The translations under genes were made by a program, and so were the position numbers. DNA of 64,000 nucleotides, from the NCBI GenBank assembly GCA_041488255.1, contig JBGPOV010000002.1, forward strand, positions 23,509-87,508. The letters run 5' to 3'. Under the pieces are notes generated by a model, which was given only the letters and a program-made list of their open reading frames with translations, searched no databases and had not been told where the DNA came from. Position 1 is the first letter of the stretch. The number at the start of each line of letters is the position of its first letter. Shown piece by piece: positions 7,277 through 36,550 of this stretch. This stretch comes from Gammaproteobacteria bacterium (GTDB taxonomy: Bacteria > Pseudomonadota > Gammaproteobacteria > Burkholderiales > SHXO01).

Positions 7277-8773
<1,497 letters not shown>

Positions 8774-24465: not shown

Positions 24466-24584
24466 AGCTACGTAAGATACTGAACTGTCTACTGTAGATG
24501 TTACATATTCTGCTGCGGTACCCGCATAGGTACCCGCTTCCGGCGCTGTCACCACCTAGGAGGCCGGCTCTGGCCACCGGACGA

Positions 24585-24824
24585 TCAGTCCTCGTGCTTA
24601 GCCTCTTTCCGCCAAAGCACGCGGACCACACCCAAGACGATAAGTCCGACGCCCCACATGATGGTTTCCGGCACCGCCACCGGCTCGAAGCCGGCTAAGC
24701 CCCTATGTGCAGGGTTCGCTACCAGCGTCGCGATACCGTCGGACAGCAGCACCGCTCCGCCCACGAAGCAAATGAGATCGCCGATGCGGGACAGAATGCG
24801 ACGGCGCTTGAGAGGGTCCCACAT
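24585..24824 (-). CDS. Small 2-TM membrane protein
   Basis: 79-aa ORF with two hydrophobic helices (LICFVGGAVLLSDGIATLV; IMWGVGLIVLGVVRVLW). Confidence 0.5.
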   Translation of the reverse strand: MWDPLKRRRILSRIGDLICFVGGAVLLSDGIATLVANPAHRGLAGFEPVAVPETIMWGVGLIVLGVVRVLWRKEAKHED

Positions 24825-25082
24825 GGCTTGCGCTCCGAGTGCTGGAACGTCATCAGGCGTTCAGGTTCCGGCTGGCATCGTCTGCGCCCAGACCGCGGGC
24901 GCTGGCTTTAGCTCGCGGGGCCTCGCGTGCTGACGTGCATTCTACCCGCCGGCATGAGCCCCGCTGACCGCGCCTTGCTCGCTACTGTCTGCGCATCTAG
25001 TCAGCTCTATGCATCGCGCGGTCTATCCGGCGCTGTCACCCCGCCGCCGTGTCAACGGCCGAACGGAACTCGGGCCGATCTG

Positions 25083-25156
25083 GCGGCTCGGTCTGACCTT
25101 GCCCTCAAGAGAGAGGAGCCAGCCCGGGGCGTGTGAAGGCGGTAGGGCTGGCTAAA
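25083..25156. repeat. Island repeat, copy 1 (left end)
   Basis: GACCTT...GAGAGGAGCCAGCCCGG(25111-25127)...GTGAAGG CGGTAGGGCTGGC. GCCAGCCC and GGGCTGGC form an 8-bp inverted repeat. Starts ~20 nt after the stop of ORF 25175-25435. Confidence 0.7.
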
Positions 25157-25174
25157 GCACCGCTGGCGCGGCGC

Positions 25175-25435
25175 CTATCTCGGCTGATGCGCCGAAATCT
25201 GGCCCAGCTTCGTAATCAGCCGGCCGACTGCGCGAGACTGGAAGACGCGTTTGGAATGGACGTACTCAAGACCCTGGGGATCGCCGACTGAAACGCCGAG
25301 CACCTGCTCAGCTTCTCGCCGGCCGCCGACCTTTGCGAGATTGAGGACCGACCCGATCAGGAAAAATAGCTCCTGCTGAGAAAGCAACGGCTGCGACTGT
25401 GGGGATTTGGAACTGCTACGCTTGGACTTAACCAT
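25175..25435 (-). CDS. Hypothetical protein (86 aa), island left end
   Basis: Strong SD (AGGAGG, 5 nt before the ATG). Basic/Ser-rich N-terminus. The C-terminal residues weakly resemble the C-terminus of ORF 33390-34295. Confidence 0.55.
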   Translation of the reverse strand: MVKSKRSSSKSPQSQPLLSQQELFFLIGSVLNLAKVGGRREAEQVLGVSVGDPQGLEYVHSKRVFQSRAVGRLITKLGQISAHQPR

Positions 25436-25774
25436 GATTGCCTCCTAGTGGGCGTTGTGGCCAGGGCGGGGCAGAGCTGACACTCTGTCCTCCGCCCGCT
25501 TTTGCCGAGGATCATCCCGCCTCGGCGACGGGTTCACTGTCTCTCGCAACAACGGTACAACCTTGTCGCCCCGTAGTCTAATAACGAATCGTGTTGACCG
25601 TGGTTATCCGCGAGAAGTCGCATCCGATGAACCCGAAGACTTGGCTCAAATGGGCGCGCAAGCTACTGATGCAGAGTCGAAACTTGCGGTGTTAGATGGG
25701 GCCTGACTACACCGGCGGCTACACGCGTTTGCCCGCTAACGCCGGGCGTGCGGCTTGCTTGATGTTGGGGTAAA

Positions 25775-26089
25775 GTGACACCGCCTATGGTGTCAGCCAA
25801 ACCCAGCATATATGATGAGGCTCTCGATCAGCTCAGAACCTCCCCAGCAGGGTTTCGATGCGCAGAGCTAGAAGCCCTTCTGGATAGCCTTGGCTTCAAA
25901 GTTCGACCAGGGAAGAAGGGGGGGCATCGAGTTTTTACACATGACGCTCTGGCGAAGGCGGGCTTTTGGGGATCAAGCTTCAACTGCGGACACCGGTCTA
26001 CTGCCAATGTGCGGCCCGCTTACGTTCTGAATATTGCACGGATCTGTGAGACCTACGAGGACGAGTTACGCCAGTTCCTGGGTGAGTGA
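25775..26089 (+). CDS. hicA: HicA-like toxin (YcfA/HicA family), N-terminally extended
   Basis: ELEALLDSLGFKVRPGKKGGHRVFTH ... NCGHRSTANVRPAYVLNIARI fits the HicA pattern (G-x-x-H, then a second H and helix). It lies directly upstream of, and overlaps, a clear HicB. Confidence 0.6.
   Translation: MTPPMVSAKPSIYDEALDQLRTSPAGFRCAELEALLDSLGFKVRPGKKGGHRVFTHDALAKAGFWGSSFNCGHRSTANVRPAYVLNIARICETYEDELRQFLGE
25776..25795. promoter_or_regulatory. Perfect 7-bp inverted repeat over the hicA start; candidate antitoxin operator
   Basis: TGACACC-GCCTAT-GGTGTCA spans both candidate start codons (GTG 25775, ATG 25787). Confidence 0.45.
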
Positions 26090-26736
26090 CAAGGATGTTT
26101 GATCCACACGCATACGCGATAACGGTCAGGAAGGATGAGGTGGACGGAGAGCAGTTGTTCCGAGCCACGATAGCCGAACTGCCAGACGTAGAGGAGTACG
26201 CGCCTACGTACCAGGAAGCCTACGAGTTCGCAATTGACGCCATCGAGACGCTCCAAGCCATGTACGAGGAAGAAGGGCGGTCTTTCCCCACCCCGAGCGA
26301 GGAAGAGCGGGAATTCAGCGGCAGGGTGACGCTGCGTGTTCCGAAGAGCGTGCACCGTCAGGCCGCAACAATCGCGCAGGCCGAGGGCGTCAGCCTCAAC
26401 CAGTGGCTAGTTTCTACCGTCGCGCTTGCCGTAGGGAATAGGTCGATGCTCGCAGGGGTCTCCACTACTACCGTTGGCCCCGCCTCCACTGTTGGTGCTA
26501 TTGCAGGGAGTAGTGGCGTGATCAACTTTACTGGCGGTGGCGGGTTCAACGTTACTATGAACAGCGCCGCGCTCTACTACTACCATCTCATGTATCCGTT
26601 CATCCCGATCGGCTCATTAGATTTCGGTGGAATGGGCCAGATCTGGGTCAATCCAGCACCAACCGCAGCGGTCCATGGGCAAGAAAAGGGTAAGAAGAAA
26701 CCGGAACTATGGGTGGTGCAGAAGCGCGCTGCGTAA
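26086..26736 (+). CDS. hicB: HicB-family antitoxin (HicB N-domain + RHH) fused to an unrecognised ~100-aa C-terminal domain
   Basis: FRATIAELPDVEEYAPTYQEAYEFAIDAIETL..EEGRSFPTP..FSGRVTLRVPKSVHRQAATIAQAEGVSLNQWLVSTVA is a canonical HicB plus ribbon-helix-helix. The ORF then continues for ~100 further codons (G/S/T-rich, then an aromatic patch YYYHLMYPFIP). Confidence 0.8.
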   Translation: MTRMFDPHAYAITVRKDEVDGEQLFRATIAELPDVEEYAPTYQEAYEFAIDAIETLQAMYEEEGRSFPTPSEEEREFSGRVTLRVPKSVHRQAATIAQAEGVSLNQWLVSTVALAVGNRSMLAGVSTTTVGPASTVGAIAGSSGVINFTGGGGFNVTMNSAALYYYHLMYPFIPIGSLDFGGMGQIWVNPAPTAAVHGQEKGKKKPELWVVQKRAA

Positions 26737-26742
26737 CGGGGA

Positions 26743-27075
26743 ATGCCCATGGCTGAAACCACGGCGATAACGTTTGACTTCAAAGAGGTTGCTGAGCTTC
26801 TCGTCAAGAAGCATGGCATCCACGACGGGCTGTGGACCATCTATGTGGAGTTCGGGATCGGGGCCGCCAACGTCGGTCCGTCGCCTCAAGAGCTGCGGCC
26901 TGCGGCCATTATCCCGGTGGTGAAATTCGGGATTCAGCGTGTCAACGAATCAACGAATCTTACGGTTGATGCCGCCGCTGTGAACCCGGCTCCTGGATTC
27001 AAGGCCAAACTCAAGGCGCCGGCGTCCGCGAAGAGGTCTAAGAGGCAGGCTGGAGAAAGTAAACCGAGCTCATGA
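26743..27075 (+). CDS. Hypothetical protein (110 aa) with basic tail
   Basis: Starts 7-13 nt after the hicB stop on the same strand. No recognisable motif. C-terminus is K/R/S-rich. Confidence 0.5.
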   Translation: MPMAETTAITFDFKEVAELLVKKHGIHDGLWTIYVEFGIGAANVGPSPQELRPAAIIPVVKFGIQRVNESTNLTVDAAAVNPAPGFKAKLKAPASAKRSKRQAGESKPSS

Positions 27076-27416
27076 ATAAGACGATGCTAAAAGCAGCAGC
27101 CGCTCTGCTTCGCCCGGTATCGTCTGATCCGCTGCCCATTCGTTGTGCTCATCTCTCTCCTCTCACAAGGACTCGGGCCGGGTGGGGACTGGCCGGCTAC
27201 GGCTGAGCGGGGCCTGAATCGCGCTCCAGATTCGAGGGGTGGCAGGGGCAAAACTCCAACCGGCAGAAAAAGTGTCAATGCCCTTTTTCGCGATCGCGCA
27301 AAAACAAAAGGAGGGCCTTGCCTGGACGCTGCTGGACGTTGGTCCCATAATGTCTGAGTCCACTACGCCGGTCGTGGTGGTCGATTAACTTCCCGTCATG
27401 CCGTAAAGTTAGATCC

Positions 27417-27992
27417 GTGCGCTCTCCCTGCGTAACCTCGCGTTCCACCTTCGAGCCGATCTCCTGCGCCGGTTCTTCATACACCGATGAACAGCGCAAG
27501 GAAGCGGCGATGCGTTATCTGCTCACAGGCAACGTAACCGAGGTCAGTTTGGCGATGGGTATCCCTCGCACCACCGTGCAGAGCTGGAAGTCACAGGAAT
27601 GGTGGAATGACCTTATCGTCGCGGTTCGTCAAGAACACAACGATGAGCTGGACGCGCGCATGACCCGGATTATGGACAAGACGTTCGCGGAGCTGGAGGA
27701 TCGGATCGAACATGGCGAGGCAACCGGGAAGTTGGGCGCGGATGGAAAGCCGATCAAGCTTCCTGTGAGGGTTCGTGATCTGAGTATCACCGGGGCGATC
27801 CTGTTCGACAAGCGGCAGTTGCTGCGAAGCCTGCCGACCGCCATCAAAGACGGGGCGGGGCTGTCTGCCATTGCGACGGAGCTGGTGCAGGCCTTCCAGT
27901 TGGTGGTACAGCGCGGTGAGAAGACCGTCGAGGGCACAGCTGAGCGGGTAACGGGTGGCGACAAGCCTGCTCCGCAGCTGAGACGGCGCTAG
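27417..27992 (+). CDS. HTH-domain protein resembling a small terminase subunit / IS3-type HTH
   Basis: YTDEQRKEAAMRYLLTGNVTEVSLAMGIPRTTVQSWKSQEWW is an HTH, followed by a helical region ending ILFDKRQLLRSLPT, as seen in TerS-like proteins. Start uncertain (GTG 27417 or ATG 27510). Confidence 0.45.
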   Translation: MRSPCVTSRSTFEPISCAGSSYTDEQRKEAAMRYLLTGNVTEVSLAMGIPRTTVQSWKSQEWWNDLIVAVRQEHNDELDARMTRIMDKTFAELEDRIEHGEATGKLGADGKPIKLPVRVRDLSITGAILFDKRQLLRSLPTAIKDGAGLSAIATELVQAFQLVVQRGEKTVEGTAERVTGGDKPAPQLRRR

Positions 27993-28429
27993 GAAATCGA
28001 GTCGTCGCTCGAGGTCATTGAAGACGCGGGGAGTCCATGAGGCGGCCACGCACCCTCGCGACTACCGCCTTCGCGAGCATGAATGCCTCTAGTTGGGCCC
28101 CGCCGCGCTTCTGCACAGTCTGAAGCAGCGTATCCATGAAGGTGCTGGACTGCTCCGAGCCGACCTTCATCAGCACGACGGCCGCCTGAAGGTGTGGATT
28201 GTCGGCGTTCTGCTCGCCGCCCGCCTTCAGCGCTTTGGTGACTGTCGGTGGTCCTTACATATGCCCCATGTGCAGCGCGTCTGGCCCGAGCCATCGCAAA
28301 GCTAATCGCTTGAAGGCCAGCACTTTGCGGCTCTGCGGCATGGGATATGCGTCCGCCATGGTTCGGCTCGAAAGCAACCTTAATGTCGTCCTCCCTCGGT
28401 ACTTCCTTCGATATGGGACAGGGGCAGCG

Positions 28430-29122
28430 ATGGCGAGTCTCATTCGGTTGATCACAGCGGCGACGTTCATCGCAGCGCTTTCTGTAGCGCGGGTGGAGGC
28501 GACGCCGATTACCTTCACCTTTGAGGGCACAGCCACCGGTCTCCTTGGGAATACACCTTTCACCGCAGCCCCCTTCACCATCACGGCTGACGCTGATACG
28601 ACGAACGTGGTGACGTCAGCTACTGGCGATGGCGCTACGGGAGGGGACTTCAGCCTCGATACAGATTCAGCGACGATCGACATCCCAGGCATTGGGACGC
28701 TAACATTCAGCACGGGGACACGGCTATTCGACGCCAGAGGCGTGACGGTCAACAGTCAGGGACCCTTAGACCTGTTGGGCTTCGCCAGGGCCGGGCTCGA
28801 TGGCATCGTTCTGATGGATTTCGCGGACCCTGTGTTTGCCACATACGACCTCTCGACGGCACTAGCTCCCCTGTTTATCGGCGACGCGATTAGTCTCAAT
28901 TCGATCGGTACGACCATGGGAAACCTCAGCTTCGATCAGGTCGTCGATGTCACGTTTACTGCAACGACCGACATGTGTGGTCATGGTCATCGTAAGAGGG
29001 ATGACTCCTGCGAGTCGTCGGTCCCCGAACCGGCCACGCTCGCTCTTCTCGGCCTCGCCTTCGCAGGGATAGGCTGGGCGAGACGGCGTGGTATTCGCAA
29101 AGCCATTCCAAGGGTCGGGTAG
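28430..29122 (+). CDS. PEP-CTERM sorting-domain secreted protein
   Basis: Signal peptide MASLIRLITAATFIAALSVARVEA. The C-terminus VPEPATLALLGLAFAGIGWARRR shows PEP motif + TM + Arg cluster. Track ORF trimmed to the ATG at 28430. Confidence 0.85.
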   Translation: MASLIRLITAATFIAALSVARVEATPITFTFEGTATGLLGNTPFTAAPFTITADADTTNVVTSATGDGATGGDFSLDTDSATIDIPGIGTLTFSTGTRLFDARGVTVNSQGPLDLLGFARAGLDGIVLMDFADPVFATYDLSTALAPLFIGDAISLNSIGTTMGNLSFDQVVDVTFTATTDMCGHGHRKRDDSCESSVPEPATLALLGLAFAGIGWARRRGIRKAIPRVG

Positions 29123-29188
29123 ATCATCATCGTCTTGCTCCCTTCGTTGATCGGCCTCAAAGGCGGCCGGCTGAGCCCCAGTCTTCGA

Positions 29189-29542
29189 TCATGCGGGTGT
29201 CTCCTCATCCTGCTGCGCTGGCGCTTCGCGCTTGCGCTTGCGCGCCTGGTAGATGCTGAGTACGCTCTGCACCGTAATGCTGATGCCGCGCCTCTCCTGG
29301 CCTTCCTTGCCAGTCCAGCTAGTCAGCTTGCCCATGCCCGCCACAGAGACCGGGTCGCCCTTGTGTAGCTGCATAAGCGCCTTGACCGCTGCCGACTCGA
29401 AGGCAATCAGACTTGTCAGCATCGACTCCTCGCCGTCCAGCGGAACGCGCAGCAATGCCGTGCAGTAGAGCTTGCCGGCAGCGCTCGTGCGCGACTGCGG
29501 ATCCCCGGCGAGGCTGCCTTGGCACAAGACGCTCAGGCTCAT
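29189..29542 (-). CDS. SSB-like OB-fold protein with acidic tail
   Basis: CQGSLAGDPQSRTSAAGKLYCTALLRV...KGDPVSVAGMGKLTSW..GQERRGISITVQSV follows the SSB OB-fold pattern. ATGA overlap with the upstream gene. Track ORF trimmed. Confidence 0.6.
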   Translation of the reverse strand: MSLSVLCQGSLAGDPQSRTSAAGKLYCTALLRVPLDGEESMLTSLIAFESAAVKALMQLHKGDPVSVAGMGKLTSWTGKEGQERRGISITVQSVLSIYQARKRKREAPAQQDEETPA

Positions 29543-30117
29543 GTCTGCGTCTTCCTCTGCTCGCCCAGGCTCAGCCATTGATCGGCAGTCAGGAAGCGTT
29601 CTGGCTCTCGCACTGTGCAGTCCAGGCCAAGCTCGCGGGCCATCGCTCTGAAGCTCGTCAGGGCTCCGGACGGGTCTCTGGCAGCGGCCGTTCGCATCTC
29701 TGCAAGCTCCTCCTGTGAGCAGCCGTAGTGCCCGGCCACAAGCGGGATCAGCCGGGCCAGCTGGTCCAGCTCCGCGGGCGTGAGGTTGCGCTGCCCCGCC
29801 GGATCCGGTGCGTCCGGAAGCGGGACCAGCAGGCACCCGGGGTAGCGGCTCTCGAGGTCGGAGCGGGATATCGGAGGGGTGAACCACTTCTCGATCCGTT
29901 CCGACGGCTGGACGATCAGCCAGTGACCGGCGAGCTCGCCGAGGGTTGGGGTGTGGTCGGCTAGCGCCGCCAGCAGCTCCGGCTTGTGCGCTCGCAGCAT
30001 CGGGAGAAGATGCTCGACAGCTGGGCGTGGTCCCTGCGCCGTCAATTCGCCGTCTTCCAGGACCAGCTTGATACCGGCGGATTTGGCCTGTTCGATGATC
30101 TCCAAGACAGCGCTCAT
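29539..30117 (-). CDS. Hypothetical protein with TubC_N-like N-terminal domain
   Basis: EIIEQAKSAGIKLVLEDGELTAQGPRPAVEHLLPMLRAHKPELLAAL matches the TubC_N-type pattern by eye. ATGA overlap with the P-loop gene stop. Confidence 0.4.
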   Translation of the reverse strand: MSAVLEIIEQAKSAGIKLVLEDGELTAQGPRPAVEHLLPMLRAHKPELLAALADHTPTLGELAGHWLIVQPSERIEKWFTPPISRSDLESRYPGCLLVPLPDAPDPAGQRNLTPAELDQLARLIPLVAGHYGCSQEELAEMRTAAARDPSGALTSFRAMARELGLDCTVREPERFLTADQWLSLGEQRKTQT

Positions 30118-31754
30118 ATCGTCGCCTTTACCTCTTCCCCCCCACTTTGGGTATTTCTATCCGTCATGCCGTCAGGTGCCTTATCCAGCGGGGCTTTCAG
30201 GGGTTTTTCTATCCGTAAGGTGCCACCCTGCCTGACGGATGAAAAATTCCCGGAATCGCCCGTGGCTGTAGGGACCTGACGGACTGACGCTTGGAAAAGG
30301 GGAATCTGGGCGGAAGAAGGTATGTAGCGCACAAACGCTTCGGTAAACTGGTCGAGCTTGTACCCCTTCAAAGTACTTCCAGGGTCGCCTAGCCAGATAG
30401 TCTGCGAAACGATCTCGAAGGCGCGTAGTCGGTTGGCTAGTTGTCGCTGGGTCATCGCCTTCCCATGATGGAAAGTCGCCCAGGGGCGCTCAGGATCGGC
30501 ACACAGGGCCTCGATTAAATCCGCACTGGATAGCCGATCCTTGTCGCCGAACGCCTTGCGGATGTCGGCCAGCAGCTCGGTCCCGATCCCAGGGGCCTCG
30601 TTTTCTGCGCCAGAAAAGGCCTTGGCAGACTCAAGGGCCGCCTTGGTCCAATCCCCGCCAGCGGCCTCGGCGATCGCCAGCAGGGGCCACCAGTTGTCTG
30701 CAGCACGGTCATTTAACGTGTCAGCGATCTGCGGCTTGATCAGCCGGATGACCTGCGCGTTGTCGCGCGAGAACCTGACGCACTGGCGGCGCATCTGGTC
30801 CAGGTTCTTTGCATAGCGTAGTTTCTCCACCTTCTCGTTGGGCAGCCGGCGCCGCAGGTTGATAACGATGCATCGATCCTGCAACGTATCGGCGGGCTTG
30901 CCGATCATCGCCAGTACCTTCGGGCACCAGGTCGAGAAGCGCCTCGGCTCAAAGTCATCACCGCTGCATCGCATGACGAAGGCCAAATCTCTGGTGTGCC
31001 CAGAATTCATCACGCCGCGCAGCTCCTCGTTATCGGTCAAGAACGAATCCGCCTCGTCTACCAGCAGCGTCGGGCACCACTTCTCGATAGAGCGGTACAC
31101 GGCCGCCGGCGACACGTTGGATGCGGGCAGCGCGCGATAGGTTACGCGGGAAAGCCATGACAGCAAGGTCGTCTTGCCGCACCGCTTTTCTGGTGACAGC
31201 AGGGCCAGCAGAGGCGCGGTATCCACACTGTCTATCAAGTATGTGAACAGCACCCACAACGCCACGGTCTTGTCCGCGTGCTTGGGTAGCACGACAAAAC
31301 GGCGCACTGATGCTGCCAGGTCATCGAGTAGTTGCGCACCATCAACCTCGGCCCCCCAAGGCTCAATCTCCTGGAATATAGGCGTCTGCCCCACGCCATC
31401 AGCATCACCGCCGCGCTGCATCCTTACCGCGTCGTCCAGGGCACTGACGCGCACGCCTAGCTTTTCGGCTTCCGCCTCGCGTACCAGCTCATAGTCGAGC
31501 GGCGCCCGAGCCGCCAAGCCGGTGACGGCCTCCCTGATCTTGGGATCGCTCGACACAACCAGCGGATCGGCATCGCCTTGATGTCCCTTCACCCGTCGAA
31601 CAATGAGACCGGGAGCCTCGGCTGGCTTCTCGCCGGCCTGGCGCTTCCGGGCCCTCTCATCCAGAATTGACGCGCCTCTTGCCTCACCCTCTTGCCGTCG
31701 GCGTGACTGCTCAAAGATGCGCGGACCCTGCCCAACCTCAACGAAGTAAGCCAT
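30114..31754 (-). CDS. P-loop NTPase, DUF3631-like (putative replicative helicase/initiator of the island)
   Basis: Walker A SPEKRCGKTTLL and Walker B LLVDEADSF. Start set to the ATG at 31754 (GAGGAG 7 nt upstream), overlapping the upstream gene by 17 nt. Confidence 0.7.
   Translation of the reverse strand: MAYFVEVGQGPRIFEQSRRRQEGEARGASILDERARKRQAGEKPAEAPGLIVRRVKGHQGDADPLVVSSDPKIREAVTGLAARAPLDYELVREAEAEKLGVRVSALDDAVRMQRGGDADGVGQTPIFQEIEPWGAEVDGAQLLDDLAASVRRFVVLPKHADKTVALWVLFTYLIDSVDTAPLLALLSPEKRCGKTTLLSWLSRVTYRALPASNVSPAAVYRSIEKWCPTLLVDEADSFLTDNEELRGVMNSGHTRDLAFVMRCSGDDFEPRRFSTWCPKVLAMIGKPADTLQDRCIVINLRRRLPNEKVEKLRYAKNLDQMRRQCVRFSRDNAQVIRLIKPQIADTLNDRAADNWWPLLAIAEAAGGDWTKAALESAKAFSGAENEAPGIGTELLADIRKAFGDKDRLSSADLIEALCADPERPWATFHHGKAMTQRQLANRLRAFEIVSQTIWLGDPGSTLKGYKLDQFTEAFVRYIPSSAQIPLFQASVRQVPTATGDSGNFSSVRQGGTLRIEKPLKAPLDKAPDGMTDRNTQSGGEEVKATI
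30154..30290. repeat. Iteron-like repeat cluster (candidate ori) inside the 3' end of the P-loop gene
   Basis: TTTCTATCCGT at 30154-30164 and 30206-30216. CCGTCAGG at 30169-30176 on the plus strand, and as CCTGACGG at 30231-30238 and 30275-30282. Two copies are direct and two inverted. The repeats fall in different codon phases. Confidence 0.6.
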
Positions 31755-32166
31755 GAGCCAACTCCTCAGCATTGCGCAGACGCACGGCGGCCACACGTAG
31801 GCGGTCGCGGTCGATATCGCTCAAAGTGATCCCGTTGGCTAGGTTGTCGGCGGCAACGCTCGCGATCTCGACCTCGAACCCCACGCAACTCAAAACGGCG
31901 GCAGCATCGAAGGGACGACGCTCACGCGGCAGATGATCGCCGAGTGCGCGATCTGGGTAGAGATCCGACAGCCCCAAGCCGATCGCACTGAGCACATCCG
32001 TGACGCCACATCCGCCGAAGTCGTGGATCAGCACGCGCCCGTCCTCCAACTCACGCACCGCCAGGGATGGGTGCCGGTCTTCGTGTGCGGGACAGCGCGC
32101 GATCCAGCGGCGGGGTCCAACGGCACGCACGCCGGCGAGGCGGGAGATCAAGGCGTCTGCGCTCAT
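31738..32166 (-). CDS. Primase-helicase zinc-binding domain protein (stand-alone)
   Basis: WIARCPAHEDRHPSLAVRELEDGRVLIHDFGGCGVTDVLSAIGL is the Prim_Zn_Ribbon pattern. Confidence 0.75.
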   Translation of the reverse strand: MSADALISRLAGVRAVGPRRWIARCPAHEDRHPSLAVRELEDGRVLIHDFGGCGVTDVLSAIGLGLSDLYPDRALGDHLPRERRPFDAAAVLSCVGFEVEIASVAADNLANGITLSDIDRDRLRVAAVRLRNAEELAHGLLR

Positions 32167-32241
32167 GAGCCGCCCCTCAGTGGACTTCCATCATGGGAAG
32201 GCGATGAGGCGAGCCCCGACTCGAGGCTCTTCGCGCGCCAG

Positions 32242-32466
32242 TCACGAGCCCAACCGCGTGATCAATGCCCGGATATCCTCGACCCGCCATGCTGTCGTGC
32301 GCGGGCCGAGCTTTACCGGTTTGGGAAATCGCCCAGATCGAACGCCTTCCCACCAGGTAGACCGGCCGATTGGGATTAGCGCCGGAATGGGTGGATCCGC
32401 CTCGGGGTCGCCAACAATTTGCGGAAGCCTGACGTATCCGGTTTGCGGAAGAACAACGTTCAGCAT
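32242..32466 (-). CDS. alpA: AlpA-family phage/island transcriptional regulator (excisionase-like HTH)
   Basis: YVRLPQIV..LIPIGRSTWWEGVRSGRFPKPVKLGPRTTAWRVEDIRALI. Confidence 0.9.
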   Translation of the reverse strand: MLNVVLPQTGYVRLPQIVGDPEADPPIPALIPIGRSTWWEGVRSGRFPKPVKLGPRTTAWRVEDIRALITRLGS

Positions 32467-32583
32467 GGGCTATCTCCGTCTGACATGAAGCAGCCACATA
32501 CTGCTAGGTGCCCTATGAAATATCAAAGGGCAAATCGACGTGAGTTTTGGAACCGGTTTGCGGACTACGAACTACGGAAGCGC

Positions 32584-33285
32584 TCAGCTTCTCTCTTGAC
32601 GGCGTTGCGTGCGTTCGCGAAGCCGGGCCATCCGGTCGGGCAGCGCGGCCTCACTGACAATCAGACCATTCAGACGGGTCCTAAGCTCCCGCTCCTTCAC
32701 CGGGAGGCTTCCTTTGATGACCCGCAGGCAGCCGCGGATAAACGTTACATCGGCAGCGCTGACAGGCGTGTCAGGGTCAACCGGGCGCCCTCTCCACTCT
32801 CTCCAGAGGTTTCCGATCAATTCGTTTTCGGCTTCGTTCCCCTTATGCTGCGTACGTTCCGTCTTCGTCCTGGCGATACGCCCGGCGAGTGTCTCCCGTG
32901 CTCCGCCCATACCATTGAGAACGGCTTGAAGCGCGCGAAGCACGAGATCAAGTAGCTGCAGCGCTTCGCGCTCCTGCGATTCGGCCAGCCCCATCCGCAG
33001 GCGGCCCCTGTTGCGAATCTTGAGTTGAACTCCGGTCTTAATCAGCTCGAATGCCTCACCGTCGAGATTCCCGCGGAGCTTAGTAGCGGCCGATTCTATC
33101 GTGGCCAACTTCTTCTTAACCTCCGAGTTGGACTCGACGCGCTGTTGTGGCCACGCGATGTTGAGAAACTGGAAAGCGCACCCGTTCAGCTGATCACGCA
33201 GTTCATTGGCGTGCGCATCGGGCAAAGAAACACCGGCCCTTTGGGCGAGCTCCAGCACGTTTGCTTGCGTGAACTGGGTGGACAT
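32584..33285 (-). CDS. Hypothetical protein ORF-D (233 aa)
   Basis: GGAAGG SD. Predominantly helical and charged. No recognisable motif. Confidence 0.55.
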   Translation of the reverse strand: MSTQFTQANVLELAQRAGVSLPDAHANELRDQLNGCAFQFLNIAWPQQRVESNSEVKKKLATIESAATKLRGNLDGEAFELIKTGVQLKIRNRGRLRMGLAESQEREALQLLDLVLRALQAVLNGMGGARETLAGRIARTKTERTQHKGNEAENELIGNLWREWRGRPVDPDTPVSAADVTFIRGCLRVIKGSLPVKERELRTRLNGLIVSEAALPDRMARLRERTQRRQERS

Positions 33286-33297
33286 GACGCGCGCCTT

Positions 33298-33385
33298 CCA
33301 GCGCTGACCTTCAGGGAGAGGAGCCAGCCCGGCCGGGTGAAGGGATCCCGGTATTCCCGCCGTCGCGGTAGGGCTCGCCAGTAAA
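33298..33385. repeat. Island repeat, copy 2 (internal, between ORF-C and ORF-D)
   Basis: GACCTT..GAGAGGAGCCAGCCCGG(33316-33332)..GGGTGAAGG + 23-nt insert + CGGTAGGGCTCGCC. Same orientation as copy 1. Starts ~10 nt after the ORF-C stop. Confidence 0.7.
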
Positions 33386-33389
33386 AACT

Positions 33390-34295
33390 CTACTCTTGCG
33401 GACGCTGGCCGTTGTGGAGCAGTTGGCCGAGAAAGCGCTGGAAATTTGCGTCGTTCGATGCGCGCGTTGAGCCCTCACGAGCCGTCGCCTGTGCCTCCTC
33501 GTTCACCAGCTTTTCGACCTTGACCGGGACGGTGCGCAGCCCCTGCGCCGCGGCCTCGATCGCGTTGATGACCCCCTGCAATGCGGCTGGGTCTAGCGTG
33601 TAACGGTAGCCGTGGCGCGTCTCTACCGCGCGCCTGGCAAGCCGCGTCGCTGTGACAATCCAGTTCTCGAGATCCTCTCGGAACTCATGGGGGTTCTGGT
33701 AGCCGGCCCGTTCGTTCTGCCTTCGTTCCTCCGCGCGCCGTTCCTCGTCGAGATCGCGCTCGTGGATCAGCCAGCCATTCGGGGCCTGCTTAACTTCGTC
33801 TTCGTCTGCCGCGATACTAGCAGCAAGCAATGCACGCTCCGACCCGTAGTGAATGATCCTACTAACGACTACTCTTCTAGATTTAAAGTCCGTGTCGTGT
33901 AGTTCGTAACGCTCCAGCTCAGCGCTGAGCCGAATCAAGTTCCGCGGACAATTCTCCTCGAGAGTCAGGCGAAAGGCTCCATCGCCGTTTCTGTGCACTC
34001 GGCCTGCGTAGTCGCTGTGGTGTCGCCAATAGGACGGACTGAACACATGTACACCGCGCCTGATGGGATGGTCAGTGCAGGGCCATCTGAAATCGTCAGC
34101 GATGAATCCCGAAGCGCCGATCTGCTCCTTGGACCCGTGATAGTGCGTGATGACGCGATCGATATCCTGCCATGGGCCCATGAAACGCTCGAGGCGCAGG
34201 CCTGCCCGTGCTGCTTGTGCATCTCTGTCGCGGATGAACCCAGGGAGGTCTATGCTCTCGGGTGCGGGGATTGCCGTAGCTTTAAGCTTCGCCAT
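33390..34295 (-). CDS. Hypothetical protein ORF-C (301 aa), His/Cys-rich N-terminal half
   Basis: SD GAGGTGG. Overlaps the ORF-B stop by 14 nt. N-terminal half contains THYHG, CTDHP, YWRHHSDYAGRVHRNGDG and EENCPRN. C-terminal half is charged and helical. Confidence 0.6.
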   Translation of the reverse strand: MAKLKATAIPAPESIDLPGFIRDRDAQAARAGLRLERFMGPWQDIDRVITHYHGSKEQIGASGFIADDFRWPCTDHPIRRGVHVFSPSYWRHHSDYAGRVHRNGDGAFRLTLEENCPRNLIRLSAELERYELHDTDFKSRRVVVSRIIHYGSERALLAASIAADEDEVKQAPNGWLIHERDLDEERRAEERRQNERAGYQNPHEFREDLENWIVTATRLARRAVETRHGYRYTLDPAALQGVINAIEAAAQGLRTVPVKVEKLVNEEAQATAREGSTRASNDANFQRFLGQLLHNGQRPQE

Positions 34296-34533
34296 GTTCC
34301 ACCTCGCGCTTCTGTTTGGAAAAATCGATCGAAAACTGATCGATGTCGTCGGATAGTTCCTGTGCCATCCGCTCGCCCTGCGCGGCGACGATCCTGGCCT
34401 CGTGATTCGCCTCCCTCCCGGAATAGGGGTCGTCTCCAGCGAGTTGCGCGACCGCTTTGAACATCGTTACAAGTTTCAGTGCGCGAGCCTGGAAGGCCTG
34501 GACAGGATCCTTGTCGGTGCGGTTCTCAGTCAT
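34282..34533 (-). CDS. Hypothetical protein ORF-B (83 aa)
   Basis: Start set to the ATG at 34533 (GGAGG 6 nt upstream), overlapping the ORF-A stop as ATGACTGA. Confidence 0.55.
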   Translation of the reverse strand: MTENRTDKDPVQAFQARALKLVTMFKAVAQLAGDDPYSGREANHEARIVAAQGERMAQELSDDIDQFSIDFSKQKREVEHGEA

Positions 34534-34891
34534 GGGGCACCTCCGCGTGGGTCGTCCTGCCATCCCATTCATCGAATCGGCGAAGCGCTTCTTCGACCGC
34601 TATCAGTTCATGCAGCGCCAGTTGTGCAGCAGCCTTGAAGCTGCCTGGGAACGTGGCTGGCCCATCCCCATTCGTCAACAGATCGACTGCCCCGCGAGCC
34701 CTCCGGACAGCTGGCAGAACCACATCGGACAGCCATGCGAAACTCGGCTCTTGTTTGGCCTCGTAAACGCGCATGAATTCAGGCGATGACCGTCTTTGCC
34801 ATTCGCGTTCGGGATCATCCATCGTCCCTGCGGCGGGAACGGCCTTAAGAGATGCGGGCTTGCGTGCGGTGTTACGCTTGATGGTAGCCAT
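34526..34891 (-). CDS. Hypothetical protein ORF-A (121 aa), basic N-terminus
   Basis: GGAGG SD 8 nt upstream. First gene downstream of int on the same strand. Confidence 0.55.
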   Translation of the reverse strand: MATIKRNTARKPASLKAVPAAGTMDDPEREWQRRSSPEFMRVYEAKQEPSFAWLSDVVLPAVRRARGAVDLLTNGDGPATFPGSFKAAAQLALHELIAVEEALRRFDEWDGRTTHAEVPHD

Positions 34892-35001
34892 GATGCGAAC
34901 CTCCAGTTAGGTTTGCGTTGTGGTCAGGCCGGCAGCAGGTTCACCCCTGCTGTTCGGCCGCTTTGCCGTGGGAATCACCCCCGCCACGGCGTCGGGTACG
35001 G

Positions 35002-36264
35002 CTACACTGCCTTTCGCAGCGGTACGACCTTGCTGTCTCCTGCGGCGACCTGATCCAGGTAGTCCGCCCAGTGCTGCATCATCTGCCGGCGCTCCTCGAG
35101 ATACTCGGCCTGGTTGTAGGACGCGCGTGTCTTGTTGCGCTCCTTGTGGGCAAGCTGACGCTCGATCACGTCGGGGCGGAATGCCATTTCGTTGAGAATA
35201 GTCGATGCAGTCGCGCGGAAGCCGTGCGCCGAAAACTCGCCGTGATACCCCATGCGCTGGAGAACTCGGTTAATCGTCGTGACGCCGATGTAGAGCTTGG
35301 GTCGATGATTGTTCGGGAATAGCCACTTCTGCCCTCCCGTCAGAGTCTTCAGCTCGGTAAACAGGGCCACGGCTTGGCGAGAGAGTGGGACGACGTGGTC
35401 TTCGTCCATTTTCATTCGCTCCTTGGGTATCCGCCATAAAGCGCTTTTGAGGTCGATCTCCGCCCATTCCCCGCCCCGTAGCTCGATGGTTCGAACGAAC
35501 GTGAGCAACAGTAAGTGAACCGCGATCACCGTCGTGCGATGACCCCCGTACGCTGCCAGGCGCTTGAGGAATGTAGGTATCTCGGATTGACTGAGCGGCT
35601 GGTGGCTGTCGGTTCTCGGGACCTGGATTGCACCTTTGAGAGCGGCGGCCGGGTCCGCGTCAGCTCGAAGAGTGGAGACCGCGTAGCGGAAGATTGCTGA
35701 GCACCACTGACGCAGCATTAAAGCCATGGTCGCGGTGCGCTTCTCTACCTTTTGAAGAAGCACCAGCAGATGTGCCGCCGTTACCGACCGAATCGGTAGC
35801 GATCCAATATCCGGGAATGCGTCCGCCTCTAGTGCACGCAAGACCTTCTCCGCGTACCCGGCGCTCCAGTTCCCTTTGCGCTTCTCGTGCCACTCGCGCC
35901 CGATCGCTTCGAAGGTGTTTGCGCTTTCGGCAGTCCGCTTCAAGCGAGTAAGTTTGCGGGCGTGCGACGGATGGGTGCCTGACTTGACCAGAGCCCGCGC
36001 TTTGTCACGGTCAAGTCGAGCTTCGGAAAGGGTGAACACGCCACCCTGCCTGCGCAGTTCCGCTTCTGCGGCCGACTCATCTCTCGCCGGCGCTAGGTAT
36101 TCACCGAGAGCGAAAAGATTCTCCTTCCCGTCGATCCTATAGCGATAGCGCCACAGCTTCTTCCCGTTCGGTCGGACCTCTAGGTATAGGCCCTTCCCGT
36201 CCGTTATCTTCTGCGCCTTCTTGCTCTTTCGAGCATTCCGGACCGCGGTATCGGTGAGCGCCAT
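35002..36264 (-). CDS. int: Tyrosine recombinase/integrase, P4-type (DUF4102 N-domain)
   Basis: MALTDTAVRNAR...ITDGKGLYLEVRPNGKKLWRYRYRIDGKE, and the catalytic region HGFRATASTILNE...LAHKERNKTRASYNQAEY. Confidence 0.95.
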   Translation of the reverse strand: MALTDTAVRNARKSKKAQKITDGKGLYLEVRPNGKKLWRYRYRIDGKENLFALGEYLAPARDESAAEAELRRQGGVFTLSEARLDRDKARALVKSGTHPSHARKLTRLKRTAESANTFEAIGREWHEKRKGNWSAGYAEKVLRALEADAFPDIGSLPIRSVTAAHLLVLLQKVEKRTATMALMLRQWCSAIFRYAVSTLRADADPAAALKGAIQVPRTDSHQPLSQSEIPTFLKRLAAYGGHRTTVIAVHLLLLTFVRTIELRGGEWAEIDLKSALWRIPKERMKMDEDHVVPLSRQAVALFTELKTLTGGQKWLFPNNHRPKLYIGVTTINRVLQRMGYHGEFSAHGFRATASTILNEMAFRPDVIERQLAHKERNKTRASYNQAEYLEERRQMMQHWADYLDQVAAGDSKVVPLRKAV

Positions 36265-36314
36265 GTAATTGCTGGTATTCGATGAGCGGCGAATTGATAC
36301 CCACCAGGATACCC
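36247..36314. promoter_or_regulatory. Symmetric array of four GATACC hexamers at the int 5' end
   Basis: GGTATC 36247-36252, GGTATTC 36274-36280, GATACCC 36296-36302, GATACCC 36308-36314: two inverted plus two direct copies. Confidence 0.4.
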
Positions 36315-36550
36315 GCTTTTAGATTGGATGACAACAGACTTGCTCGGACCTTATCGGCCTGAATGCCCCGTCTGTTAGGGGGTAGGCCGGAACGGCTTGG
36401 ACGGTGTTGGATGTGCCGGGATGTCGGTGCTAGTTATCCCCAGCAACTGGCACATGAGGGCTCGGCGTCCGGTCTCAAATCTGGCTTGCGTCGCTGCGGC
36501 CCGTCGTAGTGTTAGCATTGCCCCAGGACGACGAGATTGTAGCAACCCCG

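Follow-up and report, generated by a model that had tools for sequence, protein, structure and literature searches.

Within the window, the 64,000-nt stretch of DNA that was analysed, we found an island of genes whose left neighbour is a GATase_4 gene (23692-24465; Table 1). On the minus strand the order is int, four ORFs without a family match, alpA, a zinc-ribbon ORF, the DUF3631 gene (rep), a TubC_N-like ORF and ssb, and on the plus strand there are hicA (below threshold), hicB, orf108, an HTH/Terminase_5-like ORF (orf191) and a PEP-CTERM ORF; this is the content and order given in the earlier note on this DNA. All of the island ORFs are intact and closely packed, with overlapping stops and starts, and eight have no family assignment. 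Family searches of the island detected neither capsid, tail or lysis genes, in agreement with the earlier note, nor a relaxase gene or the P4 genes psu, delta and sid.

GC content is lower in the island, as had been noticed before (60.6% vs 65.2% elsewhere in the window), and equal-sized segments outside the island (n = 57) all have values from 64.6% to 66.1%. GC3 is also unlike that of the host. The leftmost 700 bp of the island has a host-like GC content of 64.1%. At this end lies orf79, immediately 5' of the GATase gene on the same strand; it had been taken for a core gene, but it occurs solely in island contexts and is missing from empty sites, and is island DNA. For hicA and hicB, an overlap of 4 nt is reported.

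Table 1. Features of the island and its junctions, by position in the window.
Feature	Position	Strand	Evidence or remarks
GATase_4 class-II glutamine amidotransferase, YafJ-like, 257 aa (insertion target)	23692..24465	-	Pfam GATase_4, E 2.6e-120
attL core ATCCCCAGGAGTTGGCACAT	24446..24465	.	Three-way comparison: empty site L003 vs both window junctions
Candidate P' arm-type integrase sites, GGTACCCGC x2, 12 bp apart	24517..24537	+	52-72 bp inside attL
orf79, small hydrophobic protein	24585..24824	-	No family match except sub-threshold DctQ
Shortened int-alpA RNA copy	25100..25160	-	Has pyrimidine tail and outer stem AGCCAGCCC/GGGCUGGCU; both inner hairpins missing
orf86	25175..25435	-	Called as gene in L031-L038; no family match
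Putative hicA toxin gene, start codon uncertain	25775..26089	+	HicA_toxin, E 7.7e-4, 20 bits (cut-off 27)
hicB antitoxin, long C-terminal extension, 213 aa	26095..26736	+	Pfam HicB, E 2.8e-11; phrog_497 HicB-like; gene call
orf108	26749..27075	+	Gene call; no family match
orf191, orphan small-terminase (TerS) homologue	27417..27992	+	N-terminal HTH, then long helices
PEP-CTERM-anchored secreted protein, cargo	28340..29122	+	Pfam PEP-CTERM, E 3.4e-8; gene call
SSB, single-strand DNA-binding protein, 117 aa	29189..29542	-	Pfam SSB, E 4.9e-7; phrog_44; TIGR00621 below cut-off
orf192, TubC_N-like N-terminus	29539..30117	-	TubC_N, E 1e-4, below cut-off
Rep, P-loop DUF3631/RepAM replication helicase or initiator	30114..31754	-	DUF3631, E 1.2e-42
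Candidate replication origin, inside rep 3' coding tail	30149..30260	-	2 iterons and inverted half-site
CHC2-type zinc-ribbon protein, primase-N-terminus-like	31738..32166	-	phrog_6088 DNA primase, positions 7-73 of 772, E 3.5e-10
alpA, AlpA/Vis-family regulator	32242..32466	-	Pfam Phage_AlpA, 27.3 bits (cut-off 21)
orf233, first gene downstream of int-alpA RNA	32584..33285	-	No match: Pfam, PHROGs, NCBIfam, PADLOC, PDB
int-alpA RNA motif, Rfam RF02996	33308..33378	-	49.4 bits (gathering score 35.8); full length 1-71
orf301, accessory	33390..34295	-	No family match
orf83	34282..34533	-	Gene call; no family match (PHROGs, NCBIfam, PADLOC)
orf121	34526..34891	-	Gene call; no family match (PHROGs, NCBIfam, PADLOC)
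int, P4-type tyrosine integrase, 420 aa	35002..36264	-	Pfam Arm-DNA-bind_3, Phage_int_M and Phage_integrase; phrog_1; NF007246
Candidate P arm-type sites, GATACCCAC and GATACCCGC, 12 bp apart	36296..36316	+	GRTACCCRC motif search
attR core ATCCCCAGCAACTGGCACAT	36436..36455	.	Junction comparison with empty site

Attachment sites and limits of the island

Comparing the junctions with related genomes, as the earlier note had proposed, recovered the empty site and the att core. Contigs from four assemblies (L003-L006) lack the island, and their alignment to the window, with a flank identity of ~99.7-99.9%, ends at 24465 and restarts at 36425. Because these near-identical strains lack the island, its ends and attachment site are defined at base resolution; the element therefore spans 11,990 bp, from 24446/24466 to 36435/36455, between imperfect 20-bp repeats, and the limits first proposed (25090-36400) are wrong. 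On the empty-site contigs, the 257-aa GATase gene call lies 95 bp from a methyltransferase gene. Near the junction, the window flanks differ from the empty site only at 24454, 24456 and 24457, and since carrier and non-carrier strains differ there only at these three core positions, the gain or loss was very recent. In one assembly, GCA_041486105.1, the empty site occurs together with the island, which forms a contig of its own (12,241 bp). The possibility of a prophage continuing beyond these genes had been raised; the island stops at attL and attR, each of which is followed by host genes. Present in one strain and absent from near-identical ones, with precise att sites, the block is an integrase island, as had been claimed, and one that is discrete and was mobile recently. 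The circular excised form was also sought: JGI metagenome contigs yielded no attP junction, and all junctions recovered are of the integrated form.

Insertion is site-specific, into the first 20 bp (codons 1-7) of the GATase_4 coding sequence. The 20-bp junction repeat is identical throughout only in the segment ATCCCCAG, which is the host-side half of attL and also the inferred crossover region, and which is flanked by inverted half-sites; the attR core lies within an inverted repeat, GTGCTAGTT-ATCCCCAGC-AACTGGCAC. Read as its reverse complement, the island-side half of attL, GAGTTGGCACAT, gives the start codon and codons 2-4. In the carrier strain, the first 12 nt of the GATase gene (24454-24465, codons M-C-Q-L) are island-derived, and because they restore the start codon, the codon for the catalytic Cys2 and the two after it synonymously, the gene is intact. 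The differences between the attL half-site and attB are exactly those expected of attP-derived DNA. At the other end, attR keeps the displaced native GATase start and its upstream region, now facing int; the remnant frame runs from an ATG at 36455 to a stop at 36375 and is in frame with an ORF at 36375-36545.

The motif GRTACCCRC occurs seven times in the window as compared to 1.4 expected (no shuffle gave seven), and four of the seven copies form two pairs with 12-bp spacing, one at each end of the island. The candidate P arm sites immediately precede the start of int, at a distance of 120-140 bp from the attR core, and the same doublet (GCGGGTATC x2, in int orientation) is also found upstream of the related int genes of L077, L078 and L079. 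Neither ARAGORN nor Rfam found a tRNA or tmRNA gene anywhere in the window, so the absence of a tRNA at the junctions stands, and of the suggestion that the att site is unusual or degraded we retain the first part: judged by sequence, the inverted-repeat core and the paired GRTACCCRC sites at both ends look intact.

The closest integrases that we found (62-64% identity) adjoin a truncated trpG 5' end, and remoter ones (27-50% identity) adjoin tRNA or tmRNA genes. SXT/R391 elements (target prfC) and islands specific for dusA enter a protein gene at its 5' end and then rebuild the gene. As in these elements, the crossover falls in the first codons, a substitute start and new upstream region are supplied, and the displaced native 5' fragment stays at the int-proximal junction. 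In contrast, the target here is GATase_4 (trpG for the closest integrase relatives), and the integrase is P4-type, with wider relatives that use tRNA/tmRNA genes.

Replication module and int-alpA RNA

Rep has a Walker A (GKT) and a Walker B (DEAD) motif. Many of its 2,128 homologues are ~790 aa long with Toprim, PriCT or Prim-Pol fusions; Rep is without the TOPRIM/primase domain present in many of them and aligns to residues 322-784 of P0009. When its AF2 model (pLDDT 74.7) was compared with the PDB by Foldseek, the matches were MCM, PriRep1, poxvirus D5/E5, NrS-1 and AAV Rep40 (E 1e-7 to 1e-5), so the predicted fold matches replicative helicases. The part of rep with the candidate origin encodes a region predicted to be disordered (residues 481-546, pLDDT <50). 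Here, two iterons, ACGGATAGAAA(A/T)ACCC, lie 52 nt apart and are read in different frames, with an inverted half-site, ATCCGTCA; two exact iteron matches were observed vs 0.23 expected. In L040, the homologous rep gene has the same repeat pattern, identically placed and spaced, and related repeats are found in L039 and L042, so that the iterons are conserved among homologues at the DNA level. An origin had been proposed next to rep; there is no intergenic array, and the candidate origin is instead inside the rep 3' end.

In the zinc-ribbon ORF, which is 48% identical to the gene at the same position in L039, the motif CPAHEDRHPS is readable; no catalytic primase domain was detected in this ORF and none was identified in the island. 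A TubC_N-type gene follows a DUF3631 rep in four loci, including L039, L040/41 and L090. The last four minus-strand genes had been described as linked by ATGA-type overlaps, which we found only at rep/orf192 and orf192/ssb, the zinc-ribbon ORF and rep overlapping by 17 nt. Close relatives of the rep gene are absent from IMG/VR, and the same family is present on small Streptomyces plasmids.

The int-alpA RNA exceeds the gathering score over its full length and, like its family, is located between int and alpA. Unlike the family, both here and in L039 (77.8 bits) it immediately precedes the gene heading the alpA/rep operon, and a second, shortened copy is found at the far end of the island. This copy is below every Rfam threshold; it includes one arm of a direct repeat (D1, 25100-25127 vs 33305-33332, 86%), and a hairpin is predicted in it. 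orf301 has weak tblastn similarity (E 6e-4) to the int-adjacent gene of L077. alpA is 75% identical to the alpA of L078, and AlpA is probably the excision factor.

The small-terminase homologue

An alternative start of orf191 at 27510 would give a protein of 160 aa. Its Pfam matches (Terminase_5/HTH) are sub-threshold, and its family has 2,760 cluster representatives. Homologues in viral contigs and GenBank phages are immediately 5' of TerL, which fits the earlier description of a TerS-like gene. The best BFVD fold match is 'Terminase small subunit' (E 5e-8), with low model confidence (pLDDT 62.5), and the fold has no significant match in the PDB. The nearest homologues (~70% identity) are amid IS/transposon genes, outside phage or island packaging contexts. 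In the sister DUF3631 islands L040 and L042, both TerS and TerL are present, and no capsid or tail genes were recognised among the ORFs scanned. We identified no capsid-remodelling gene or helper phage for the island. Taken together, the phage homology of orf191 and the TerS/TerL sister islands suggest a satellite-like element, a reading that has thereby gained support.

Satellite, mobilisable element or remnant

PICI-type satellites (SaPI, Gram-negative PICIs) are modelled in SatelliteFinder (PMC10085698), and four of the five PICI core components in these models have a functional counterpart in the island, with no forbidden component. The island shares with PICIs a length of 10-15 kb, int at one end and separated from the regulator by accessory genes, a primase/replicase module that comes after alpA and has an origin beside it (a candidate here), a stand-alone small terminase, and the absence of tail, holin, portal and capsid genes. 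Unlike PICIs, the island has a DUF3631/RepAM helicase as its replicase, the zinc-ribbon protein is encoded separately and a primase domain is not recognisable. Its TerS homologue is from a family without a Pfam model and is encoded convergently, on the opposite strand; no gene for capsid morphogenesis was detected, the target is a protein-gene 5' end, and the host is an environmental Burkholderiales-like bacterium.

With P4-like satellites, the island shares an integrase of the P4 family that has an arm-binding domain, a small regulator of the AlpA/Vis type and a helicase-type replication protein with an origin in or near its own gene (a candidate here). The normal targets of P4-type elements are tRNA genes. 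In contrast, the island targets the start of a protein gene, psu, delta, sid and epsilon were not detected, and its replicase is no P4 alpha homologue; with only integrase and alpA P4-like, the earlier suggestion of a P4-type satellite is not supported.

On balance, we lean towards the island being an integrative, self-replicating phage-satellite (PICI-like) candidate of a Burkholderiales-like host.

Counted against the satellite reading are the missing attP with all junctions in integrated form, the absence of close rep relatives from IMG/VR, and the setting of the nearest orf191 homologues, with the low pLDDT and lack of a PDB match. The strand of orf191, opposite to the alpA-rep operon and unlike canonical PICIs, and the failure to identify a capsid-remodelling gene, helper phage or primase catalytic domain also count against it, and the eight unassigned ORFs could conceal other transfer functions.

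An integrative mobilisable element would excise and replicate likewise, and would hijack a conjugative system via an unrecognised relaxase or oriT mimic, with orf191 as an HTH regulator. We consider this unlikely: no ORF matched a relaxase, coupling-protein or FtsK/SpoIIIE family, the orf191 family fills the TerS slot of several phage genomes, and the sister islands have TerS plus TerL, although a circular or encapsidated form was not found in JGI metagenome contigs or IMG/VR, the neighbours of the closest orf191 homologues are IS and transposon genes rather than phage genes, and eight ORFs are without assignment. DUF3631/RepAM, RepAM being named as the initiator of pMEA300 replication, is also best known in conjugative actinomycete elements (PMC3218068). 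These pMEA300-type elements share with the island a tyrosine integrase, a DUF3631/RepAM initiator and an integrated form (some relatives are also small plasmids); in contrast, the island has no FtsK/SpoIIIE Tra protein, is in a proteobacterial host, and has a TerS homologue and alpA.

Equally improbable, in our judgement, is a decaying satellite or prophage remnant that integrates and perhaps replicates, has lost transfer, and is retained through the HicAB addiction module and cargo. A Rep stripped of the primase domain of many homologues with just a zinc-ribbon ORF left, the shortened RNA motif and host-like GC at the left end, and the missing attP would fit such decay; however, every ORF is intact and tightly packed, neither end shows damage to its core or arm sites, and presence and absence among strains that differ near the junction only at three core positions indicate a very recent gain or loss.

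An ancestral, non-mobile block lost from relatives by ordinary deletion is hardly conceivable and was rejected: nothing favours it except the missing tRNA gene, and against it are the identical clean empty site in four assemblies, ends that match the recombinase core repeat exactly with an integrase gene adjacent, an attL half-site that departs from attB as attP-derived DNA should, and GC and GC3 unlike the host.

As a phage satellite, the island would be excised as a circle by the P4-type integrase acting on the paired arm sites at both ends, with help from AlpA. The circle would be replicated by the DUF3631/RepAM helicase, the zinc-ribbon protein and SSB, starting at the iterons embedded in the rep 3' end, and the orphan TerS homologue may recruit the large terminase and capsids of a helper phage to package island DNA. 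HicAB would stabilise the island, and the cargo would be the four genes between int and alpA, orf79, orf86, orf108 and the PEP-CTERM gene. Insertion would also swap promoters, such that the native GATase promoter would point toward int and the GATase gene would now be downstream of the island's orf79.

Insertion site and boundaries of the element

An exact-sequence look-up of the O-methyltransferase gene that flanks the island returned two island-bearing contigs (L001 and L002) and four contigs from other assemblies in which the island is absent and 95 bp separate the methyltransferase gene from a GATase_4 gene of 257 aa (L003, JGI 3300052987; L004, GCA_041486105.1; L005, GCA_041493385.1; L006, JGI 3300055271). 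When these empty-site contigs were compared with the window by BLAST, left homology ended at 24465 and right homology resumed at 36425, with a 31-bp overlap. In register, attB reads GTTGCAGTTCATCCCCAGCAACTGGCACAT then GAGGG, attL reads GTTGCAGTTCATCCCCAGGAGTTGGCACAT then AGCTACG, and attR reads GTGCTAGTT-ATCCCCAGCAACTGGCACAT then GAGGG; as synthetic junction strings, attB contains GCAGTTCATCCCCAGCAACTGGCACATGAGGG and the predicted attP contains GGTGCTAGTTATCCCCAGGAGTTGGCACATAGCTACG. From this comparison we obtain an element of 11,990 bp with one att core at each end (see table). An earlier note, made from the sequence alone, had placed an island at 25090-36400 and had suggested comparing its junctions with relatives that lack it. 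That comparison recovered the empty site in four assemblies together with the att core, and showed these boundaries to be wrong, the block running from 24446 to 36455. It also moves orf79, taken in the note for a core gene, inside the element; orf79 was recovered in island contexts alone. The core was revealed solely by the empty-site comparison: a direct-repeat search (seed 10) missed it, as three mismatches split the core into 8-bp exact runs.

The island lies within codons 1-7 (MCQLLGM) of the GATase_4 gene. Where attB has CAAC, attL has GAGT, which turns codons CAG-TTG into CAA-CTC and encodes Gln-Leu both ways; thus, the island supplies its own start codon, the Cys2 codon and two more codons. 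Cys2 is the N-terminal nucleophile of class-II amidotransferases. To the right of the octamer ATCCCCAG, attL carries the island version and attR the host version, which places strand exchange in or to the left of ATCCCCAG. In attR, the octamer is flanked by an inverted repeat (GTGCTAGTT / AACTGGCAC), an arrangement that would match the usual core anatomy of tyrosine recombinases.

Close to the junction, the only differences between the empty-site contigs and the window are at the three core positions (24454, 24456 and 24457), indicating that gain or loss was very recent. In GCA_041486105.1, the empty site is on contig 44 (JBGPKW010000044.1, L004) and the island is on a separate contig (JBGPKW010000151.1, L036) of 12,241 bp, equivalent to window positions 24313-36553 and overlapping the chromosome by 153 bp on its left. 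This pattern resembles an assembly bubble, and occupied and empty alleles appear to coexist in one sample. Relatives have an empty site, the core repeat is present on both flanks and an integrase gene lies beside it; the block is almost certainly a site-specific integrative element in the 5' end of the GATase gene.

The lower-GC block described in the earlier note is present: GC is 60.6% in the element and 65.2% elsewhere, below all 57 equal-sized windows outside it (64.6%-66.1%), and GC3 is 0.55-0.80 in island genes as compared to 0.78-0.87 in flanking host genes. The difference in GC and the empty site in four relatives argue against an ancestral block shared by related genomes. No tRNA or tmRNA was found by ARAGORN across the 64-kb window, in agreement with the note's reading of the junctions.

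Gene content, replication module and small-terminase homologue

Six-frame ORFs, GC3 and gene calls on identical public contigs give 19 ORFs in 24.5-36.3 kb, and Pfam, PHROGs and NCBIfam matches bear out the gene list of the earlier note, with NCBIfam adding nothing past int and SSB. Among these 19 ORFs, capsid, tail, lysis, relaxase and P4 psu/delta/sid genes had no family match in the three databases, and PADLOC found no defence systems in the ten unassigned or weakly assigned ORFs scanned. The five plus-strand genes (hicA, hicB, orf108, orf191 and the PEP-CTERM gene) converge on the minus-strand genes. The PEP-CTERM sorting signal of the cargo protein implies a host with an exosortase system.

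Features of the element and its junctions (window coordinates)
Feature	Position	Strand	Match or remark
GATase_4 gene	23692-24465	-	start codon CAT at 24463-24465
attL core	24446-24465
GRTACCCRC pair	24517/24529		52-72 bp inside attL
15-bp direct repeat TCCGGCGCTGTCACC	24539-24553 and 25026-25040		exact; brackets orf79
orf79	24585-24824	-	79 aa
Shortened int-alpA copy	25100-25160	-	downstream of orf86, ~275 nt upstream of orf79
orf86	25175-25435	-
hicA		+	HicA_toxin 20 bits, below cut-off 27
hicB		+	HicB 43.6 bits, above cut-off 21
orf108		+	no family match
orf191	27417-27992	+	191 aa; HTH/Terminase_5-like, Pfam sub-threshold
PEP-CTERM protein	28340-29122	+	cargo; start differs between two assemblies (260 aa vs 230 aa)
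SSB		-	117 aa
orf192	29539-30117	-	weak TubC_N match
DUF3631 protein (rep)	30114-31754	-	546 aa; Pfam E 1.2e-42
Repeats in 3' end of rep	30149-30260		candidate origin
CHC2-type zinc-ribbon protein	31738-32166	-	142 aa; match limited to N-terminus of phage primases
alpA	32242-32466	-	Phage_AlpA 27.3 bits, cut-off 21
orf121, orf83, orf301, orf233		-	no family match
int-alpA RNA (RF02996)	33308-33378	-	between orf301 and orf233
int	35002-36264	-	P4-type tyrosine integrase; Arm-DNA-bind_3, Phage_int_M, Phage_integrase; phrog_1
GRTACCCRC pair	36296/36308		120-140 bp inside attR, just upstream of int
26-codon frame MCQLLGITSTDIPAHPTPSKPFRPTP	36375-36455	-	displaced GATase start
attR core	36436-36455
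O-methyltransferase gene	36551-37219

Our search returned 2,128 DUF3631 homologues, which JGI labels 'putative DNA primase/helicase'. Many are ~790 aa long and carry N-terminal Toprim_4/Toprim_3, PriCT/Prim-Pol or zf-CHC2 fusions. The window rep aligns to only the C-terminal 460 residues of a ~790-aa homologue (52% identity), the 142-aa ORF contributes the zinc ribbon only, and no TOPRIM, Prim-Pol or other primase catalytic domain was found anywhere in the element. Together, the replication proteins resemble a divided and shortened form of the common ~790-aa Toprim-DUF3631 fusion, and an unrelated DUF3631 island (L039) has a matching split with a zinc-ribbon ORF that is 48% identical. DUF3631 is also found on two 13.5-14.3-kb Streptomyces plasmids, and it corresponds to RepAM, the replication initiator of the integrative element pMEA300 (PMC3218068). 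The rep sequence has Walker A (GKT) and Walker B (DEAD) motifs. Its AlphaFold model (32 sequences, pLDDT 74.7) matched MCM subunits, PriRep1, poxvirus D5/E5, ASFV PrimPol, the NrS-1 helicase and AAV Rep40 at E 1e-7 to 1e-5, but with low TM-scores of 0.2-0.3. When rep, orf301, orf233 and the profile of orf191 were searched against PDB sequences, no match was significant. In GenBank, a good rep match was found in a single 'phage', Pseudomonas phage Phipami28; bacterial-looking genes are present there too, and it was set aside.

In the last 110 nt of rep, ACGGATAGAAA(A/T)ACCC occurs twice, 52 nt apart and in different frames, together with an inverted half-site. The rep homologue of a second DUF3631 island (L040) has two copies of GTTGCGGAT(A/G)GAAAA, again with 52-nt spacing (5091/5143) and an inverted half-site, and analogous repeats are present at the equivalent rep position in L039 (~11440-11540) and in a further island, L042 (~11370-11545). 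AlphaFold predicts residues 481-546 of rep to be disordered. Repeats kept at the DNA level within a disordered coding tail would make this region a candidate embedded origin; tandem-repeat and inverted-repeat scans found no intergenic iteron array. A small TubC_N-like gene follows rep in the window, L039, L040/41 and L090.

The int-alpA RNA is the sole Rfam match at gathering threshold (49.4 bits vs 35.8, covering positions 1-71 of the 71 in the model). A pyrimidine-rich tail comes after its outer stem. L039 carries the same motif at 77.8 bits (8452-8521, plus strand), directly upstream of the first gene of the zinc-ribbon/rep operon. Because the motif heads the rep operon in both islands, the comparison suggests that it is leader- or terminator-like for this operon rather than a free-standing sRNA. 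Near the far end of the island, a shortened second copy retains the outer stem with its tail (28 nt at 86% identity to 33305-33332) and lacks the inner hairpins, and the 700 bp around it have a host-like GC of 64.1%. This copy may act as a simpler terminator, or be left over from an older element or a recombination event. We considered the 28-nt repeat (25100/33305) as an att or arm site and rejected it, because its copies are 640 bp and 3.1 kb away from the cores and form part of the RNA motif.

For orf191, a word-index search found 11 homologues, as compared to 2,760 cluster representatives by profile search, 1,720 of them at E <= 1e-10. This large family is without a Pfam model, and only scattered members match TerS PHROGs. 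The AF2 model of orf191 (pLDDT 62.5) has an HTH, a helix of 39 residues, a hairpin and a further pair of helices. In BFVD, the model is closest to a 'Terminase small subunit' from an uncultured phage (E 5e-8; 23% identity across 177 columns), followed by two uncharacterised phage proteins (E 8e-8) and then by many weaker TerS entries; a PDB fold search with the model found nothing significant. In the IMG/VR contigs L084 and L085, and weakly in L088, a homologue (26-39% identity) is followed directly by a ~500-aa ORF with a Terminase_6C nuclease domain and then by a 640-690-aa ORF. In the GenBank phage MW202796.1, a small ORF, a 'terminase large subunit' and a 'head to tail connecting protein' come after the homologue (31% identity, E 8e-17), and Alcaligenes phage vB_Af_QDWS535 has it ahead of a 'terminase RNaseH-like domain' gene. 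Against a terminase role, the two closest homologues (~70% identity) are among IS/transposon genes and not beside terminases. By gene order, the family occupies the small-terminase position in several phage genomes, and this synteny is stronger evidence for a TerS identity than the fold. The TerS-like label of the earlier note has support from homology, phage synteny and the BFVD match; its Pfam score is below threshold and the PDB fold search gave no match. We examined five DUF3631 islands for such genes: L040/41 has TerS (phrog_4044, E 7e-35) and TerL, L042 has TerS and TerL, the window island has the orphan TerS homologue, L090 has a putative HTH gene at the equivalent end (orf180, whose TerS-like identity was not confirmed), and L039 has restriction-modification cargo in place of terminase genes.

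Integrase relatives and junction geometry

Among GTDB genomes and JGI metagenomes, most relatives of int with 27-50% identity lie 150-330 bp downstream of a same-strand tRNA or tmRNA gene, including Ser-GGA, Leu-CAA, Arg-CCT, Thr, Met, Gly/Cys and tmRNA genes. The closest relatives that we found are 60-64% identical, and none of the three that we looked up (62-64% identity) has a tRNA gene nearby. IMG/VR gave one distant match and no close relative, and no other integrases were found beside a GATase_4 gene in GTDB genomes and metagenomes. In a Rhodocyclaceae MAG (L078) and in L079 and L080, int lies ~200 bp after trpE (interval 9811-10001 in L078 and 3400-3623 in L079). The intervening DNA begins with a ribosome-binding site, continues with ATGCTTCTCATGATCGA (MLLMIE) or GTGATCCTGATGATCGATAATTAT (ILMIDNY) and then with CATCGACATCC. 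Compared with the TrpG/PabA N-terminus, M(I/L)L(M/L)IDNYDSF, this fragment looks like a displaced 5' end of trpG, with geometry as in the window. Read from their int-side ends, the L078-L080 islands appear to sit in the 5' end of a different glutamine amidotransferase gene. The island-side att sequences align (GATAACTAGCACCGACATCC in the window, GATAATTATCATCGACATCC in L079), and the target-side sequences are partly similar (CTGGGGAT and CTGATGAT, respectively). The L078 island is ordered int-orf348-alpA-HTH-PriCT_2-DUF3987; its alpA is 75% identical to that of the window and the layout is alike, with a different replicase. The trpE-trpG interval of P. aeruginosa reportedly contains the R2-type pyocin gene cluster (PMC7344871).

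The motif GRTACCCRC occurs seven times in the window as compared to 1.4 expected, a count reached by no shuffle, and four of the seven form two same-strand pairs with 12-bp spacing, one near each att site. This doublet recurs upstream of int in L077, L078 and L079. These pairs are candidate arm-type integrase sites that would flank the core in attP. The first copy of the 15-bp direct repeat abuts the candidate P' arm sites; by our estimate, chance would give ~0.1 such repeats in this region.

In the integrated state, attR retains the upstream DNA native to the GATase gene together with the first 20 nt of that gene. The displaced GATase start is fused to island DNA in a 26-codon frame that points toward int and is in register with a six-frame ORF (36375-36545), so host-promoter read-through into int is possible. 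The intact GATase gene is 119 bp downstream of orf79 on the same strand. With the native promoter region facing int and the GATase gene downstream of orf79, a promoter swap between island and host is plausible from this geometry. Sigma-70 and terminator scans were not above chance, and no promoter was found for the relocated GATase gene.

Kind of element and implications

We compared the island with the five-component SatelliteFinder definition of PICIs (PMC10085698). The integrase is present (three Pfam domains and phrog_1), and Phage_AlpA represents the regulation module (alpA, merR or stl homologue). The primase-replicase has a functional analogue in the zinc-ribbon protein and the DUF3631 helicase, with a replicative-helicase fold and without a primase catalytic domain. 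There is no capsid-morphogenesis gene, orf191 being the sole head or packaging match in Pfam and PHROGs; accepted Type B PICIs likewise lack this component (PMC10085698). Counted by function, with this analogue and with orf191 as candidate small terminase subunit, the island has four of the five core components (PMC10085698). None of the 19 ORFs matched a forbidden tail, holin, portal or head-tail connector family in Pfam or PHROGs, and the element ends at its att sites. A PICI-like satellite fits the element's size, the terminal position of int, the accessory genes that separate int from alpA, the replication operon that alpA leads and that has its own candidate origin, the stand-alone TerS homologue and the lack of virion and lysis genes. 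We give a helper-dependent satellite roughly an even chance.

A conjugatively mobilised island and a recently immobilised element are live alternatives, because neither excision nor packaging was seen directly. An exact search of JGI metagenome contigs gave no match to the predicted attP junction of the circular form that the earlier note had proposed to look for, and exact-protein look-ups of int and orf79 recovered integrated junctions alone. Close relatives of rep are absent from IMG/VR, and no helper phage was identified. Relaxase (MOB), coupling-protein and FtsK-type translocase genes had no Pfam or NCBIfam match, with eight ORFs left without family assignment. An AICE of the pMEA300 type would share the RepAM/DUF3631 initiator, but its FtsK/SpoIIIE Tra protein (PF01580) had no Pfam match among the island ORFs. 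Nor is the island a capsid-forming PICI, as its own capsid, portal, head-tail adaptor/connector and TerL were all undetected by Pfam and PHROGs. The P4-type satellite named as one reading in the earlier note shares the integrase type, but the psu-delta-sid operon and epsilon are absent from the island ORFs (PHROGs, Pfam) and the integrase uses an att site in a protein gene with no tRNA beside it; the lack of psu, delta and sid argues against this reading. A prophage continuing beyond the block, which the same note had considered, does not fit an element that ends at att sites with host genes on both sides.

Elements that enter a protein gene at its 5' end and rebuild its start are known in principle, as with SXT/R391 in prfC and the dusA islands, and int-alpA-rep islands are common, so the finding is not categorically new. 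What looks new is this target gene with the apparent amidotransferase-5'-end habit of the nearest integrases found, and the DUF3631/TubC_N replication module in proteobacterial satellite-like islands; we found nothing on either in the literature. The candidate origin embedded in the rep gene and the TerS-like family without a Pfam model may be new or undescribed as well. The helper-dependent satellite may belong to an undescribed lineage in environmental Proteobacteria, a reading that we hold tentatively and find somewhat doubtful in all its parts together. Such a lineage may combine a DUF3631/RepAM helicase, iterons in its disordered C-terminal coding tail, a TubC_N-like partner and terminase genes. 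Its P4-type integrase sub-clade may have moved from tRNA genes to the first codons of amidotransferase genes (GATase_4 here and trpG in relatives). The gene start may be rebuilt and promoters exchanged, leaving int under a host promoter and the host gene under island transcription.

The element is a base-precise case of a P4-type integrase that uses the start of a protein gene rather than a tRNA gene, and the natural occupied and empty alleles make attB, attL, attR, the inferred attP and the candidate arm sites readable. The GATase_4 and trpG integrases, with their partly similar att cores, could serve to study shifts in target specificity. Our data also point to a likely origin inside DUF3631 rep genes and suggest a probable function for a large family of proteins that lacks a Pfam model (2,760 representatives, in small-terminase position in phages). 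Searches for islands and satellites that rely on tRNA anchors or on enterobacterial satellite profiles would be likely to overlook this element or to draw its ends wrongly. Should packaging by a helper phage be shown, satellite biology would extend to uncultured soil or freshwater Betaproteobacteria.
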